DNA of 64,000 nt from Clostridia bacterium (GCA_045545475.1 JAZQAZ010000047.1:55269-119268), one strand, 5' to 3'; shown: positions 10,147 to 16,212, numbered from the stretch's first letter. Numbers and translations: made by a program. Notes: generated from the sequence alone by a model not told the origin.

Positions 10147-10175
10147 TTGACAAATAAAAAAAACGGTGGTATAAT
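10147..10175 (+). promoter_or_regulatory. Sigma-A promoter of the T-box leader
   Basis: TTGACA-17bp-TATAAT with extended -10. Confidence 0.85.
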
Positions 10176-10192
10176 CCTTTCAACATAAATAA

Positions 10193-10470
10193 ACAAACGC
10201 AGTGATGCGGAATAGTAAGTAAGGACTTCACCTTTCAAGAGAAATGCCGGTTGGTGCAAGGCATAAGGGAAAATTTACTGAACTCGCCGCGGAGCGGTTG
10301 CCGTGAAATGTAAAGAGTAATGGCAAACGGGAACTCCCGTTACAGAGTTAAGATGTGTTGGCATCTAAGGGCATCCTTTGGGATGAAAAAGAGTGGTACC
10401 GCGGAAATGTTTAAATTTTTACGTTTTCGTCTCTTTGGAAAAGCAAAGAGACGGAAACGTTTTTTTATTG
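10193..10470 (+). ncRNA. T-box riboswitch, leucine specifier (CTC)
   Basis: Stem I AGTA/AGAGA/GGTGCAA motifs; GAA-CTC specifier at 10283-10285; T-box AAGAGTGGTACCGCG at 10389-10403; terminator CGTCTCTTTG/CAAAGAGACG plus T tract. Confidence 0.92.
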
Positions 10471-10506
10471 AATCGCAAAAATATTTTGAAAGAAAAGAGG
10501 GTTTTT

Positions 10507-11895
10507 ATGAAAAAAATCAACATCACAGATATAACATTAAAGGAGCTTTCAAAGGACAGGGGAATTTCACTTTTATTCCGTGAAAAGACAGCTGTTTCCG
10601 CCTGTGCTGATTCTCTCGGAATCGATGCAATTGAGCTTGCCGGCGTTAAAAATGAAAGAGAAGATAAAATTATATATAAAACCATATCTCAGAACGTAAA
10701 GGAAAGCGTTGTTGCAATTCCGGTTGGCTTTACAAAGGAAGAAGTTGCACTTTCCTGGGAATGCATAAAGGAAGCAGCAAAGCCTCGCCTTCAGGTGGAA
10801 GTTCCCGTATCAACGGTGCAGATGGAATATATCTATCACATCAAGGAAGAAAAGATGCTTGAAAAAATTGCTGAGCTTACAAAGGAAGCAAAGACTATTT
10901 GCTCCGATGTTGAATTTTCTGCACTTGATGCAACAAGAGCAGACATTGCGTTCTTGGTTGCGGCGGCAAAAATTGCAGCCAAAAACGGTGCAACGGTAAT
11001 TTCCGTATCCGATGATGCAGGTGTATCCCTTCCTTCTGAAATCGGAGAAATTGTATCTTCAATAAAGGCAGAACTTGACATCCCCTTATATGTAAGAGTG
11101 TCAGATGCACTCGGAATGGCAAGCGCATCTGCAATAGAGGCAATTAAAAACGGGGCTGACGGAGTGAAGAGTGCAATGGCAGGAGAAAATATTTTATCCT
11201 CTGGCGTAATTTCCGATATCGTAAGTGCAAGAGGCGATGCCCTTGGCATAGAAACAAGCCTTAAAAATACAAAAATCCACAGAAGCATTGACGATCTGCT
11301 TCTGTCAATCAATCATGAAGTATACGACACTGACGGTACAGTAAGCGAAAAGAAAAAGATTTTACTCGATGCAGACAGCACCATTTTCCAGGTATCCCAG
11401 GCGGCAGAAGTACTGGGCTATGACCTGTCCGATGAGGATTTGGGAAATGTACTTCGGGCAATAGTGAACATATGTGAGAAGAAGGGCACCATTGGTGCAA
11501 AGGAGCTTGAAGCATTAATTGCCAGTGAAGCACAGAGAGTTCCTTCCACATATCATCTCGAAAGCTATACCACCACCTGCGGAAACAAAATGGATTCAAT
11601 GTCTCAGGTAATACTTAAATGCAATGATGAAATAATCTCCGGTGTAAGTGCAGGCGACGGTCCCATCGATTCGGTATTCCGTGCAATTGAACAGAGCATC
11701 GGCTTCCACTATGAGCTGGACGATTTCCAGATTCAGGCTGTAACAGAGGGTAAAGAGGCACTCGGTTCTGCCATTGTAAAGCTGAGAAACAACGGAAAGC
11801 TCTATTCCGGTAACGGAATTTCCGCCGACATCGTTGCGGCAAGTGTAAGAGCTTATATAAACGCACTTAACAAAATTGTCTTTGAGGAGAATTAA
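10507..11895 (+). CDS. 2-isopropylmalate synthase (LeuA) homologue with degenerate active site and intact regulatory domain
   Basis: HMGL-like barrel plus LeuA allosteric domain (GDGPIDS, QAVTEGKEALG, DIVAASVRAYINALN); DTTLRDGEQ and HxHND motifs absent. Confidence 0.85.
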   Translation: MKKINITDITLKELSKDRGISLLFREKTAVSACADSLGIDAIELAGVKNEREDKIIYKTISQNVKESVVAIPVGFTKEEVALSWECIKEAAKPRLQVEVPVSTVQMEYIYHIKEEKMLEKIAELTKEAKTICSDVEFSALDATRADIAFLVAAAKIAAKNGATVISVSDDAGVSLPSEIGEIVSSIKAELDIPLYVRVSDALGMASASAIEAIKNGADGVKSAMAGENILSSGVISDIVSARGDALGIETSLKNTKIHRSIDDLLLSINHEVYDTDGTVSEKKKILLDADSTIFQVSQAAEVLGYDLSDEDLGNVLRAIVNICEKKGTIGAKELEALIASEAQRVPSTYHLESYTTTCGNKMDSMSQVILKCNDEIISGVSAGDGPIDSVFRAIEQSIGFHYELDDFQIQAVTEGKEALGSAIVKLRNNGKLYSGNGISADIVAASVRAYINALNKIVFEEN

Positions 11896-11896
11896 C

Positions 11897-14353
11897 ATGA
11901 AAATCGTATTTTCGACAAAAAATGTAAGCCGCCCGTCTTTTCTGGACTTGTGCCGCTATGCATATGACTACGGATATTCGGGATTTGAAATTTACGATGC
12001 GACAAAAGAGAGAGCATCCCACTATGACAGCATTCTCCGTAATGACCGCACGGCAGATGCGAAAAGAAAGTTACTTAACAGAAGCCTTTCTGTTTCGGCA
12101 CTTCATTATCCCTACAGCATTGATTCGGATGAAGCAACGGGGGACGGCATATATAAATATGTAGTTATGGCACGCATTGCCGGCATTGAAAACGTAATAG
12201 TAAGAATCGAAAAGGAAACGGATAAGGCAGTGCTTTCAGAAAAGCTTGGCGAAGCTATAAAATGCGCCGAAAAGTCTGATGTAAGAATCCTTCTTGAAAC
12301 TGTCGGCTATCTTTCGGAAACTGAGCATGTAATTGATATAATAAACCATTTCTCATCAGCAGTGCTTGGTGCTTCCTGGAATATCAGAGGCACATACTTC
12401 GGTGCAGGAGAAAGTGCAGAAACCACCATAAAAAGCCTTGGTGCATATATAAAATATGTACGTCTGGGTGATATGGCGGACGGCAAAACCGTTTTAATAG
12501 GCGAGGGAACACTTCCTGTAGGCGAATTCATAAACGCCCTTACGAGCCTTAACTTTGACGGCTTTGTATGTGCTTCATGGAACGATGAAATCAACGATGC
12601 TGATATTGTACTCACTCACTTTGCAAACTATATTGCATCCCTTTCAAGGGATAAAAAGGAGCACGACAAGGTATATTACAACAGAGCAAAGACAGGTACC
12701 TTTGTATGGAAAAAGTATGACATCATCGACTATACCTTCTCCGAGGTGCTTGACACAATGGTAGAAAAGTACCCCGACCAGTATGCATTCAAGTACACAA
12801 CCCTTGACTATACAAGAACATACGCCCAGTTCCGCCGTGATGTGGATGAATGTGCCGCAGCTTTAATTTCCCTCGGCGTAAAAGCAGGAGACCACGTGGC
12901 TGTATGGGCAACAAACATCCCTGCCTGGTATATCACCTTCTGGGCAACCACGAAAATCGGTGCCGTATTGGTTACGGTAAACACCGCATACAAAATCCAC
13001 GAAATTGAATACCTCTTAAAGCAGTCGGATACCCATACTTTGGTTATGATAGATGAGTGCAAGGACATTAATTATAAGGAAATTATGGAGGAACTATGCC
13101 CTGAGCTTAAGACTATGAAACCCGGCGATGCACTCTATTCCAAAAACCTGCCCTTCCTTCGTAATATCGTAACAGTAGGCTTCTCTATGCAGGGGTGCCT
13201 TACCTGGGAAGAAATGTTAAAGAGAGCAGAAATGGTGCCCCGTGAAGAGGTAAGGCGACGTGCATCGCTTGTCAAGGCAGACGATGTATGTAATATGCAG
13301 TATACATCGGGAACTACAGGCTTCCCCAAGGGCGTAATGCTTACCCACAGAAACATTGTAAATAACGGTAAGACGATAGGCGACAGAATGGATTTATCCA
13401 CCGCTGACCGTATGATGATTCAGGTACCTATGTTCCACTGCTTTGGAATGGTGCTTTCAATGACATCAATGATGACTCACGGCGGAACACTTTGCCCCAT
13501 GCCTTATTTCTCACCGAAATCATCCCTTGCCTGCGTAAACGATGAGCATATCACCTGCTTTAACGGCGTCCCCACAATGTTTATCGCAATGTTTGCACAT
13601 AAGGACTTTGCAAAGACCGACTTTTCATATATGAGAACCGGGATTATGGCAGGTGCAAACTGCCCTGCGGACCTTATGAGACGTGCTGCGGACGAAATGA
13701 ATATGCGTGAGATTATCTCCGTTTACGGTCAGACCGAAGCATCACCGGGATGCACGATGGGTGAAGTAAATGAGGATATCGACCACAGAGTTGAAACAGT
13801 CGGTTCACCCTTCCCCGGCGTTGAGTGTAAGATAATCGATCCCGAAACAGGGGAAGAATTGCCCGACGGTGAAAGCGGCGAATTTGTGGCACGCGGATTT
13901 AACATAATGAAGGGCTATTATAAAATGCCCGAAGCAACCGCACAGACCATTGATAAAGACGGATGGCTTCACTCTGGCGACATCTGTTGCCGTACACCTG
14001 ACGGATATTTCAAGGTAACCGGCCGTCTTAAGGATATGATAATAAGAGGCGGTGAAAACCTTTATCCCAGAGAAATTGAAGAATTTTATCTTACCAATCC
14101 TAAGGTACGTGACGTTCAGGTTGTGGGTGTGCCGGATGAGCGTTACGGCGAGGAATGCTGTGCGTGGATAATTCTTCACAAGGGCGAGGAGGCAACCGAG
14201 GAAGAAATGAAGGAATTCGGTAACGCTTCCATTGCACGCCATAAAGTGCCTCGCTATTTCATTTTCGTGAAAGAATTCCCCATGAATGCGGCAGGTAAAA
14301 TATTAAAGTATAAAATGCGTGATGAATCCAAGGAAATACTTGGTCTTAAATAA
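11897..14353 (+). CDS. Fusion of xylose-isomerase-like TIM barrel and acyl-CoA synthetase (AMP-binding)
   Basis: N-terminal ~260 aa AP_endonuc_2-like; C-terminal YTSGTTGFPKG, YGQTE, SGD, GRLKDMIIRGGEN, GKI; RBS GAGGAG. Confidence 0.9.
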   Translation: MKIVFSTKNVSRPSFLDLCRYAYDYGYSGFEIYDATKERASHYDSILRNDRTADAKRKLLNRSLSVSALHYPYSIDSDEATGDGIYKYVVMARIAGIENVIVRIEKETDKAVLSEKLGEAIKCAEKSDVRILLETVGYLSETEHVIDIINHFSSAVLGASWNIRGTYFGAGESAETTIKSLGAYIKYVRLGDMADGKTVLIGEGTLPVGEFINALTSLNFDGFVCASWNDEINDADIVLTHFANYIASLSRDKKEHDKVYYNRAKTGTFVWKKYDIIDYTFSEVLDTMVEKYPDQYAFKYTTLDYTRTYAQFRRDVDECAAALISLGVKAGDHVAVWATNIPAWYITFWATTKIGAVLVTVNTAYKIHEIEYLLKQSDTHTLVMIDECKDINYKEIMEELCPELKTMKPGDALYSKNLPFLRNIVTVGFSMQGCLTWEEMLKRAEMVPREEVRRRASLVKADDVCNMQYTSGTTGFPKGVMLTHRNIVNNGKTIGDRMDLSTADRMMIQVPMFHCFGMVLSMTSMMTHGGTLCPMPYFSPKSSLACVNDEHITCFNGVPTMFIAMFAHKDFAKTDFSYMRTGIMAGANCPADLMRRAADEMNMREIISVYGQTEASPGCTMGEVNEDIDHRVETVGSPFPGVECKIIDPETGEELPDGESGEFVARGFNIMKGYYKMPEATAQTIDKDGWLHSGDICCRTPDGYFKVTGRLKDMIIRGGENLYPREIEEFYLTNPKVRDVQVVGVPDERYGEECCAWIILHKGEEATEEEMKEFGNASIARHKVPRYFIFVKEFPMNAAGKILKYKMRDESKEILGLK

Positions 14354-14357
14354 TTTT

Positions 14358-14387
14358 AATGCGGTAAGGGAAACCTTACCGCATTTT
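14358..14387 (+). terminator. Intrinsic terminator
   Basis: AATGCGGTAAGG-GAAA-CCTTACCGCATT plus T tract. Confidence 0.8.
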
Positions 14388-14475
14388 CTAAAGAATAATT
14401 GACGTAATCAAAAGATTGTGATATACTTAAAAATTAAAGATAGATTTTACACTTATCCTTAAGGAGGCTTTTTAT

Positions 14476-15663
14476 ATGGTATCTGAAAAAATGTATGAGC
14501 TCGGAAGCAAAAGAAGCGAAATCCGTGAGCTTTTCGAGTATGGATTAAAAAGAAAGGCAGAAATCGGAGCTGAAAATGTTTTCGATTTCAGCTTGGGTAA
14601 CCCCAGCGTTCCTGCACCCGAATGTGTAAAGGAAGCACTCGCTGATTTAGTACTTAACACAGACCCCGTGGCACTTCACGGCTACACCTCTGCCCAGGGT
14701 GCACCCGATGTAAGAAAAAGCTGTGCAGACTACGTAAATAAAACCTTTGGTACAAGCTATACAGGGGACAATTTCTATATGACGGTAGGTGCGGCGGCAT
14801 CCCTTACAATTTCCCTTTCCGCAATATCTGAAGAGGGAAGCGAGGTTATCGTTCTTGCACCCTTTTTCCCCGAATACACAGTATTCATAAAGCAGGCGGG
14901 AATGACGCCCGTAACAGTAAAGTGCCGCGAAGAGGACTTTCAAATTGACTTTGATGCACTCAAGTGTGCAATAGGAGACAAGACAAAGGCGATAATCATA
15001 AATTCACCAAACAATCCTTCAGGCGTTGTGTTCTCCGAGGATACAATCAAGCGCCTTGCCGAAGTTTTAGCCGAGGCGGAAGCAAAATATAACAAGGAAA
15101 TATACATAATTGCGGACGAGCCTTACCGTGAGCTTGTATACACAGATGGCGTAACCGTTCCTTTCATTCCTAACTATTACAACAACACAATAGTTTGCTA
15201 TTCCTTCAGTAAGTCACTTTCCCTTCCTGGTGAAAGAATCGGTTATATCTTAGTTCCAGACAAGGCAACCGACTGGAAAAAGGTTTACTTTGCGGTTTGC
15301 GGAGCAGGCAGAAGCCTTGGCTTTGTTTGTGCACCGTCCCTTTTCCAGAAGATTGTACCCAAATGCATAGGAAAAACAGCGGACATTTCAATCTACAAGA
15401 AAAACCGAGATATTTTATGCGATGCACTCACAAAATACGGCTACAAGGTGGCACAGCCCGATGGTGCGTTCTATCTTTTTGTAAAGGCAATGGAGTCTGA
15501 TTCCCACGCTTTTTGCGAAAAGGCTAAAAAGTATGAACTTCTCTTGGTGCCCGGTGACAGCTTCGGCTATCCCGGCTACATCAGAATTTCCTACTGCGTA
15601 TCAACTGAAATGATTGAAAAGTCACTTCCTTCATTTGAAAAACTTGCTGCGGAATATAAATAA
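14476..15663 (+). CDS. PLP-dependent class I/II aminotransferase (aspartate aminotransferase-like)
   Basis: NSPNNPSG, DEPY and SFSKSLSLPGERIG motifs. Confidence 0.92.
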   Translation: MVSEKMYELGSKRSEIRELFEYGLKRKAEIGAENVFDFSLGNPSVPAPECVKEALADLVLNTDPVALHGYTSAQGAPDVRKSCADYVNKTFGTSYTGDNFYMTVGAAASLTISLSAISEEGSEVIVLAPFFPEYTVFIKQAGMTPVTVKCREEDFQIDFDALKCAIGDKTKAIIINSPNNPSGVVFSEDTIKRLAEVLAEAEAKYNKEIYIIADEPYRELVYTDGVTVPFIPNYYNNTIVCYSFSKSLSLPGERIGYILVPDKATDWKKVYFAVCGAGRSLGFVCAPSLFQKIVPKCIGKTADISIYKKNRDILCDALTKYGYKVAQPDGAFYLFVKAMESDSHAFCEKAKKYELLLVPGDSFGYPGYIRISYCVSTEMIEKSLPSFEKLAAEYK

Positions 15664-15678
15664 GAAAGGAAAATAACT

Positions 15679-16212
15679 ATGTCAAATATATGGCATGACA
15701 TATCGCCAAAAAGAATAAAGCCGGAAGATTTCATCTGCGTAATTGAAATATCCAAGGGCAGTAAGAAAAAGTATGAGCTTGACAAGGAAACAGGCTATCT
15801 GATGCTGGACAGAATTCTTTATACCTCCACTCACTATCCTGCAAACTACGGCTTTATCCCGAGAACCTACGGTGACGATAATGACCCCCTTGACGTGCTT
15901 TTAATCTGCTCCGAGCAGATTGAGCCTATGACCTTGGTCCGTGCTTACCCAATAGGCGTTATTTCCATGATTGACAACGGCCGTAAGGATGAAAAAATCA
16001 TTGCAATTCCCTTTAACGACCCCAACTACAATATGTATAACGACATATCGGAGCTTCCAGGCCACGTATTTGCGGAAATGAAGCACTTTTTCACCGTTTA
16101 CAAAAATCTTGAAAACAAGGAAACGGCGGTTGATGAAGTAAGCGGCAAGGAAGAATCTGTAAAGATAATAAACGATGCTATAAGAAACTATATAAAGAAA
16201 TTCTGCGAATAA
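15679..16212 (+). CDS. ppa: Family I inorganic pyrophosphatase
   Basis: YPANYGFIPRT and DDNDPLDV motifs. Confidence 0.95.
   Translation: MSNIWHDISPKRIKPEDFICVIEISKGSKKKYELDKETGYLMLDRILYTSTHYPANYGFIPRTYGDDNDPLDVLLICSEQIEPMTLVRAYPIGVISMIDNGRKDEKIIAIPFNDPNYNMYNDISELPGHVFAEMKHFFTVYKNLENKETAVDEVSGKEESVKIINDAIRNYIKKFCE

Follow-up and report, generated by a model that had tools for sequence, protein, structure and literature searches.

Why should an RNA switch for leucine starvation control an inactivated leucine biosynthetic enzyme together with an acyl-coenzyme A (acyl-CoA) synthetase? The question is raised by a two-gene operon in a 64,000-nt stretch of DNA from a Clostridia bacterium (the window; positions are window coordinates on the plus strand unless stated otherwise). 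Behind a leucine T-box, the operon encodes a degenerate relative of 2-isopropylmalate synthase (LeuA), which we call pseudo-LeuA, and a triosephosphate isomerase (TIM) barrel fused to an acyl-CoA synthetase (ACS), which we call TIM-ACS. Rumen and gut anaerobes require, or make use of, branched and aryl fermentation acids for amino acid synthesis, and Allison, Bryant and co-workers reportedly found in the 1960s that rumen anaerobes convert isovalerate to leucine by reductive carboxylation. We think it somewhat probable that this locus is a leucine-starvation operon that makes leucine from a preformed branched acid.

The leader RNA indicates what the operon responds to. A T-box (RF00230) at 10193-10437 scores 134.9 bits in cmscan against a gathering score of 93 (E = 7.7e-30), covers the model in full (model positions 1-219 of 219) and is the highest-scoring of the seven T-boxes in the genome. 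Its specifier, at 10283-10285, is CUC (Leu) followed by a purine, with the model's 'GAA a uuc a' aligned to GAA-CUC-G, and its UGGU bulge at 10394-10397 complements the ACCA end of the tRNA-Leu genes, all five of those found in the assembly. The intrinsic terminator that would form the 'off' state is a hairpin of 17 pairs at 10421-10460 with a T-run to 10467. Ahead of the leader, at 10147-10175, lies a putative sigma-70-type promoter (TTGACA-17-TATAAT, TG-extended, 12/12 hexamer matches); this is a consensus match only, and the region shows no excess of promoter-like sites as a class (9 observed versus 12.8 expected). The pseudo-LeuA gene (gene 1, 462 aa) occupies 10507-11895 and the TIM-ACS gene (gene 2, 818 aa) 11897-14353, so that one base separates the stop of the first from the ATG of the second. 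A hairpin at 14358-14385, followed by UUUUCU, is the likely operon terminator (folding free energy -19.9 kcal/mol, z-score -6.66, with none of 200 shuffles folding equally well); a terminator scan places this hairpin on the minus strand. A preliminary description of this DNA had named a Leu-specifier T-box and two genes 1 bp apart followed by a terminator, and both statements hold. Its view that the operon answers to uncharged tRNA-Leu is supported by comparison, since 53 of the 54 T-boxes detected at related loci are predicted to carry a Leu specifier.

The tRNA-Leu genes of the assembly have the anticodons AAG, CAG, TAG, TAA and CAA (G000:C47:10899-10982 and four other contigs). The assembly yielded only 35 tRNAs, none of them a tRNA-Leu with a GAG anticodon, and one may be unassembled; if it is absent, the CUC specifier and CUC codons would be read by the AAG tRNA, possibly inosine-modified. 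As for transcripts, three gut metatranscriptome runs of one study contain 8-12% of the sampled words. Contigs from these runs carry parts of the operon in relatives that are 92-99% identical, and two of them span the gene junction, which is compatible with co-transcription and no proof of it. We used these contigs neither for expression level nor for transcript ends or habitat, and uncovered bins carry no meaning.

If the operon is switched on when leucine is scarce, which leucine-forming genes does the organism have? In its assembly (2.74 Mb, 95.03% complete, 0.4% contaminated) there is no true leuB (best match 29.3 bits versus a cut-off of 353.2) and no true leuC (best match 117.3 bits versus 560.25, in a 659-aa frame). 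Gene 1 is the only LeuA-like gene, and the whole assembly contains no true leuA and no ilvC match. The preliminary description had noted that leuBCD are missing from the window; for leuB and leuC this extends to the entire assembly, in a search that did not cover leuD. The 2-oxoacid:ferredoxin oxidoreductase that it envisaged elsewhere in the genome is present, as a VorB-family alpha subunit (574 bits versus 399) with beta and gamma subunits. The genome also encodes IorAB, a class-II IlvE (471 bits versus 307) and a 1181-aa frame with a POR_N domain that we take as pyruvate:ferredoxin oxidoreductase.

We propose that these parts could act as follows. Uncharged tRNA-Leu would stabilise the antiterminator, the CUC T-box would read through its terminator, and both proteins would be made. 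The ACS would then turn isovalerate and ATP into isovaleryl-CoA, with release of AMP and inorganic pyrophosphate (PPi). A VorB-family oxidoreductase would convert isovaleryl-CoA to 2-ketoisocaproate by reductive carboxylation with reduced ferredoxin, and IlvE or the neighbouring aminotransferase would convert 2-ketoisocaproate to leucine. Such a salvage route would stand in for the missing leuABCD/ilvC pathway.

The distribution of these genes among Clostridia fits the proposal. We scored an even sample of 399 Clostridia genomes, counting as a pseudo-LeuA orthologue a best match at E <= 1e-70; nearly all such matches are full-length, and contig ends truncate a few. Orthologues are present in 78 of the 399 genomes. 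A leuB above cut-off occurs in 8/78 genomes with pseudo-LeuA versus 201/321 without it (Fisher p = 8e-18, uncorrected, the relatives not being independent). For VorB-family matches at E <= 1e-100 the contrast runs the other way, 75/78 versus 212/321 by hand count, and completeness is 78-87% for the three pseudo-LeuA genomes lacking such a match. In the GTDB family to which the window belongs, leuB is found in none of seven genomes with pseudo-LeuA versus two of seven without. The TIM domain is matched in 77 of the 78 pseudo-LeuA-positive genomes, the exception lying at a contig end, so the two genes do co-occur, a point on which the preliminary description had made its proposal depend.

The same pairing is seen at the level of gene order. 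A scan of one genome per species yielded 80 loci with a pseudo-LeuA relative (41-95% identity), carried by gut and rumen metagenome-assembled genomes labelled Clostridia, Oscillospiraceae, Acutalibacteraceae, Ruminococcus, Lachnospiraceae or Solobacterium. TIM-ACS directly follows pseudo-LeuA in 77 of them, and the other three (L040, L077 and L082) stop at a contig edge; the pairing, which had been put forward as a check on the idea, is thus conserved wherever the contig allows. No part of the operon is better conserved than the ACS, at 69-98% identity across the 80 loci.

At 16 of these 80 loci the order continues with a P-loop gene and genes that the route would use: pseudo-LeuA, TIM-ACS, IlvE (506 bits), a 229-aa P-loop protein, and a VorB-type alpha subunit (544 bits) and beta subunit. 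These loci stem from both deep branches of the family (e.g. L016 and L073), and in three of them (L019, L042 and L073) a CUC T-box precedes the genes. A homologue of the P-loop protein (44% identity) lies directly upstream of the vor genes in the window's own genome. More generally, P-loop proteins of 212-229 aa and 44-55% identity stand directly upstream of VorB-type genes at L099:2647-3282 (contig C18 of the same genome), L016:10939-11625 and L105:4111-4779. In Pfam they match ParA/NUBPL and CbiA weakly, with scores under gathering; no NCBIfam model matches, and the protein may be a maturation or accessory ATPase.

IlvE and the VorB-type oxidoreductase fit a pathway running in either direction, and we weighed whether isovaleryl-CoA made from external isovalerate might instead start iso-branched fatty acids, sparing leucine when it is scarce. 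There is precedent in Staphylococcus aureus, where a short-chain ACS feeds branched-chain fatty-acid synthesis from branched acids, according to the available portions of two reports (PMC10026030, PMC11167679). At the three T-box loci named above, however, ilvE and vor would be induced together with the ACS under leucine starvation, which suits synthesis of leucine; the pair is concentrated in genomes without leuB; and sister Phe and Tyr T-boxes, described below, drive ligases of aryl-acid type that have no lipid-primer role. We regard primer supply as quite improbable. A role for the synthetase in salvage, on the other hand, we hold to be likely, and the proposed salvage of isovalerate is well supported by comparative genomics.

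Is the leucine control as conserved as the genes? A search with nhmmer places a T-box directly upstream in 54 of the 75 loci that have at least 330 nt of upstream sequence, with the specifier CTC in 50, CTG in three and CCC in one; cmscan confirms a CUC T-box in L070 and L083. A short upstream leader open reading frame (ORF) of 32-43 codons with an Ile/Leu run (e.g. L016:5795-5905) is present in 20 of the 21 loci that lack a T-box. Nineteen of these 20 share a common motif type, ..ILLL.AIIIL.., with the end ..SA(V/I)CR.., and in the loci inspected the ORF sits between a promoter-like site and a hairpin with a T-run. We infer that this Ile/Leu-rich ORF is a candidate leader-peptide attenuator that would take the place of the T-box.

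Gene 2 had been described as an acyl-CoA synthetase, and this is correct for the greater part of the protein: residues 288-801, encoded at 12722-14353, form an AMP-forming synthetase of the ANL superfamily (PF00501 320.4 bits, PF13193 60.9 bits). It is not a plain synthetase, however, because an N-terminal xylose-isomerase-like TIM barrel, encoded at 11897-12721, had been overlooked (PF01261 50.4 bits versus a gathering score of 31.1, residues 20-231). The nearest NCBIfam model of the ACS is NF009233, 'fatty acid CoA ligase family protein' (672.9 bits), and the Protein Atlas offers domain-derived names only. The predicted structure of the TIM domain has eight beta/alpha units (mean predicted local distance difference test, pLDDT, 91.3), and its top Foldseek matches are ketose 3-epimerases, UlaE and AsbF (E from 2e-13 to 1e-11, template modelling (TM) scores 0.64-0.77). 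A sequence search of the PDB with this domain gave a single weak match, 4kw2 (E = 0.012), which is a lead only.

The metal site of this barrel, whose positions we placed by sequence alignment and strand ends, is largely gone in the clade to which the window belongs. Of the four ligands E/D/H/E only E134 is kept; the D, H and second E are N, R and S, with a 4-residue deletion. The corresponding motifs read LLETVG, SWNIRG, YVRLGD and CAS----W, against LLIETN, LWDVHHP, YVHVKD (HVHxKD) and SLEW in proteins with an intact site. Together with pseudo-LeuA, whose residues are described next, this makes both partners of the synthetase domain in the window operon degenerate.

What, then, is pseudo-LeuA? 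It matches the HMGL-like family PF00682 with 96 bits over a degenerate barrel (about residues 1-270) and the LeuA regulatory domain PF08502 with 108.6 bits (about residues 330-460; profile positions 4-130 of 131), and it falls under every NCBIfam LeuA cut-off (NF002086, 263.7 versus 532; TIGR00973, 234.8 versus 598.7). HMMER alignments to the LeuA structures 3ewb and 3rmj reveal that the catalytic motifs are changed, RDGEQ to KELSK, ED to LD, DTVG to DDAG and HxH to RVS. We take the roles of the corresponding LeuA residues to be substrate binding for the Arg, metal binding for the Asp and both His, and catalysis for the Glu; the Thr of DTVG is replaced as well. The losses hold across the family: no relative among 76 has Asp at the metal-ligand position (position 13), and His is absent from the HxH stretch in the 21 sequences inspected there and from the two positions counted across all 76. 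The fold is retained, in that AlphaFold, given a 59-sequence alignment, predicts the LeuA fold (pLDDT 88.0). In Foldseek its barrel superposes on Listeria LeuA 3ewb (TM score 0.90, root-mean-square deviation 1.9 Å), and the whole model aligns to the leucine-bound LeuA of Mycobacterium tuberculosis, 3fig. Because the catalytic motifs are replaced while the LeuA fold and a conserved regulatory domain remain, 'pseudo-LeuA' is a fair name. Gene 1 is, by its sequence and predicted structure, a genuine pseudo-LeuA that has lost its catalytic set family-wide, and the earlier reading of it as a dead LeuA was right. We also considered an HMG-CoA-lyase-like or aldolase-like enzyme and ruled it out, as pseudo-LeuA lacks the metal ligands common to that superfamily.

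The pattern of conservation bears on what this protein might do. The invariant columns of the family concentrate in the C-terminal regulatory domain, its best-conserved stretch. In a set of 61 sequences (the window and 60 loci), mean pairwise distances are 0.33 for the regulatory domain, 0.46 for the pseudo-LeuA barrel, 0.42 for the TIM domain and 0.16 for the ACS. We hypothesize, as the weaker part of the proposal, that pseudo-LeuA is a non-catalytic partner that binds leucine through its regulatory domain and damps the ACS in the fashion of HisZ and HisG; that it is a leucine sensor is a tentative assignment by analogy, which we find possible rather than probable. It would probably dock on the equally degenerate TIM domain. 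Pseudo-LeuA distances track TIM-domain distances beyond those of the ACS (partial r 0.64 versus 0.14 and -0.02), a correlation that is a hint at most, since slow ACS evolution and saturation could create the partial r of 0.64; the TIM domain as docking site of pseudo-LeuA is thus weakly hinted at.

Pseudo-LeuA need not be a sensor at all. It could be a scaffold or channelling partner, bridging ACS and oxidoreductase or binding a 2-oxoacid or CoA ester, or else a slowly decaying leuA relic. That the barrel retains invariant LeuA-scaffold residues (D8, E26, K27, M106-E107-Y108, E136, R144 and D169) would fit such roles, as would the many genomes of the family that manage without pseudo-LeuA. A relic, by contrast, would hardly keep an intact reading frame in nearly all full-length matches (one listed genome match contains a TGA), a length held at about 460 aa and a fixed position among relatives sharing 41-95% identity at the loci and, for a few from the genome sample, 32-37%. 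Nor would decay be expected to leave the regulatory domain best conserved and matching PF08502 over 127 of 131 positions. Overall, we judge a non-sensor role unlikely.

The assignment of pseudo-LeuA as a leucine sensor draws chiefly on a parallel in other T-box operons, in which ligases are accompanied by different small-molecule-binding modules. Acyl-CoA ligases lie behind three of the seven T-boxes in the window's own genome, those for Leu, Ile and Tyr. The Ile (AUC) T-box (96.2 bits) stands before a 751-aa protein in which HTH_3/HTH_19, Cupin_2 and ACS domains are fused (L102:1806-4365, minus strand, on G000:C41). At L101:234-4892 (G000:C9:10733-15391), the Tyr (UAC) T-box (103.8 bits) is followed by a 534-aa sodium:solute symporter, a 544-aa AMP-binding ligase and a 310-aa pyridoxal phosphate (PLP) enzyme of the PALP family; this operon may serve salvage of a 4-hydroxyphenylacetate type. 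At 19 of the related loci an Ile T-box and HTH-cupin-ACS gene stand next to the Leu operon, after it. Next in order comes a Val T-box with a second HTH-cupin paralogue, the specifier being GUA in L070 by cmscan. The Val T-boxes of L066 and L048 (GUC in L048) come from the nhmmer profile only, and cmscan finds no T-box at gathering score in L048, so that the Val (GUC) and Ile assignments at L048 rest on the weaker method. Upstream of the operon in L029, L045 and L083, a Phe (UUC) T-box accompanies an ACT-pair protein and a PaaK-like ligase, whose 517 bits lie under the PaaK cut-off of 646. The binding modules beside these ligases are thus the LeuA regulatory domain for Leu, a cupin for Ile and Val and an ACT domain for Phe, and it is by analogy with the sister ligases that pseudo-LeuA would be a sensor.

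We also noticed a Trp (UGG) T-box-like leader at G000:C6:22487-22711 on the minus strand (68.9 bits, below gathering, its specifier assigned by eye). It precedes a stand-alone 406-aa TrpB-like protein, which suggests indole salvage.

Several findings weigh against the proposed salvage of isovalerate by a leucine-sensing pair, and the wider distribution of the fusion supplies the first of them. The TIM domain matches 193 of the 399 genomes at E <= 1e-12, and the best 150 of these matches lie almost all in frames of 820-936 aa, the size of the fusion, which makes TIM-ACS far more widespread than pseudo-LeuA; the TIM-ACS core alone appears to be present in roughly one third to one half of sampled Clostridia species. 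We examined ten fusions without pseudo-LeuA (L103-L112), and nine of them sit behind a CUC T-box, detected by cmscan in three (L103, L104 and L106; 103-114 bits) and by the nhmmer profile in six. The tenth, L105, has no T-box upstream, and a scan of 650 nt gave no convincing Leu-rich leader ORF; here TIM-ACS is followed by the P-loop and vor genes. Since homologous TIM-ACS proteins are found without pseudo-LeuA behind the same type of leader, pseudo-LeuA is best seen as an accessory rather than as part of the core.

A second difficulty concerns the TIM domain. The E/D/H/E site is intact in the fusions without pseudo-LeuA and in distant members that are linked to pseudo-LeuA, which suggests a further catalytic step, neither required nor accounted for by the isovalerate model. 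One subfamily without pseudo-LeuA (e.g. L103:5798-8326), known by generic names only, keeps 84-88% identity over 843 aa between proteins from named genera such as Petroclostridium, Hydrogenispora and Dehalobacter, as would be expected if its TIM domain were active and under constraint. Outside the window clade the TIM domain is probably still catalytic. These proteins with all four metal ligands invite a two-step model with another substrate, in which an ancestral TIM metal enzyme converts a leucine-related compound, the ACS activates the product, and the window clade has lost the first step. That clade has indeed lost three of the four ligands, but its ACS (69-98% identity), T-box and vor/ilvE context persist, which argues that the ACS there functions independently of TIM catalysis; moreover, the data name no candidate substrate. 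We consider the two-step model rather improbable. In a FastTree of TIM-ACS rooted with one distant ACS, the proteins without pseudo-LeuA nest among those that are linked to pseudo-LeuA and have an intact site. The root sits on a very long branch, and we therefore draw no order of gain and loss from this tree.

The remaining points against leucine formation from isovalerate are of other kinds. The nearest model, NF009233, specifies no substrate, and the ACS falls short of its cut-off of 832; among solved structures there is no close relative to define the acyl pocket, the best PDB matches covering about two-thirds of the domain with 274 bits; and no transporter for the acid is found in the operon. 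On the regulatory side, the nhmmer T-box profile was built from the leaders of the same loci in which it was used, and the T-box of L041 (L041:2580-2864) has CCC (Pro) at the specifier columns, which may reflect a genuine change, faulty assembly or a misalignment. The genome counts ignore shared ancestry, and leuB is also present in the 8 of 78 pseudo-LeuA genomes mentioned above. Finally, the substrate, the product, leucine binding and the contact between the proteins are all things that we infer.

Around the operon, the window contains a class-I/II PLP aminotransferase at 14476-15663 (NF005305, 556.7 bits versus 376). The preliminary description took this gene to be separately transcribed and perhaps involved. 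Separate transcription agrees with a promoter-like site of its own at 14399-14427, after the hairpin, but its adjacency is not conserved: a class-I aminotransferase adjoins the pair in only two of the 80 related loci, L004 and L005, which are close relatives. The recurrent neighbour of the pair is a predicted IlvE rather than this class-I enzyme. The second gene after the PPi-releasing synthetase, at 15679-16212, encodes an inorganic pyrophosphatase. In L041 a 91%-identical fragment comes right behind the operon, and in L065 a 45%-identical one is upstream; the proximity may be coincidental. Elsewhere in the window, a five-tRNA cluster at 1510-1951 is followed by two adjoining Gut-1 RNA matches on opposite strands, at 2008-2080 on the plus strand (66.3 bits) and at 2081-2162 on the minus strand (50.3 bits).

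The locus offers concrete candidate genes for amino acid formation from fermentation acids, namely the Leu-T-box TIM-ACS, often with ilvE and vor, and its sister ligases. If the proposed route is true, calling many uncultured gut species 'leucine auxotrophs' from their genomes would be a mistake, there would be a molecular basis for the benefit of isoacid feed additives, and another biosynthetic enzyme would have turned into a pseudoenzyme partner. The intact-site TIM domain, at 84-88% identity across distant genera, would be an enzyme domain notable in its own right. More speculatively, pseudo-LeuA might be an exapted LeuA remnant serving as a HisZ-like leucine-sensing subunit on the degenerate TIM domain, and the operon one module of an undescribed Clostridia network in which Leu, Ile, Val, Phe and Tyr T-boxes each switch on an acyl-CoA ligase with its own binding module (LeuA regulatory domain, cupin or ACT), rebuilding amino acids from fermentation acids by ferredoxin-driven carboxylation. 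We find this full picture doubtful, and offer it as a tentative extension.

How does the operon compare with known systems? With the rumen isovalerate route it shares the proposed chemistry (acyl-CoA formation, ferredoxin-dependent carboxylation and transamination) and the gut and rumen habitat, its carriers being metagenome-assembled genomes of Oscillospirales type; the rumen work consists of labelling and physiology. In the literature that we searched, no activating enzyme, T-box control or LeuA-like partner has been assigned to the rumen route. That search also returned nothing on the operon itself, and T-box regulon supplements, which lay outside it, could list the gene under a generic name. 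The main text of a comparative study of T-box and riboswitch regulons (PMC3766115) does not contain the terms 'CoA ligase', 'acyl-CoA', 'CoA synthetase' or 'isopropylmalate'.

The leader shares with T-box systems of the transcription-attenuation type (RF00230) a full-length leader, specifier, UGGN bulge and terminator, but its cargo is different: an ACS and a pseudoenzyme instead of the aminoacyl-tRNA synthetase, biosynthesis operon or transporter that is usual in Firmicutes. Pseudo-LeuA has the two-domain fold and PF08502 domain of 2-isopropylmalate synthase LeuA and lacks its catalytic residues. The closest analogy for its proposed role is HisZ, an inactive paralogue of histidyl-tRNA synthetase that acts as the histidine-sensing regulatory subunit of the ATP phosphoribosyltransferase HisG(S), as set out in the accessible part of PMC9734150. 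In both cases a dead paralogue from the metabolism of the same amino acid is encoded with the enzyme that it is proposed to control. The controlled enzyme here would be an ANL ligase and not a phosphoribosyltransferase, however, and the ligand binding and allostery of pseudo-LeuA are putative.

For the synthetase, the comparison is with MbcS, the methylbutyryl-CoA synthetase of S. aureus, an AMP-forming enzyme for short branched-chain acids that salvages them from outside and feeds fatty-acid primers (PMC10026030, in the portion available). As described there, MbcS has no TIM fusion, T-box or LeuA-like partner, and we liken it to the ACS by function, not by sequence. The TIM domain shares its fold with the ketose 3-epimerase, UlaE and AsbF barrels (PF01261) at about 14% identity, whereas those enzymes are not fused to an ACS, and the metal site is degenerate in the window clade. 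Taken together, these comparisons separate what is already known, the chemistry from isovalerate to leucine and an ordinary T-box RNA, from what appears to be new within the literature searched: the proposal of a T-box-controlled TIM-ACS as the activating enzyme, the ilvE and vor genes clustered with it, and a pseudoenzyme partner derived from LeuA.

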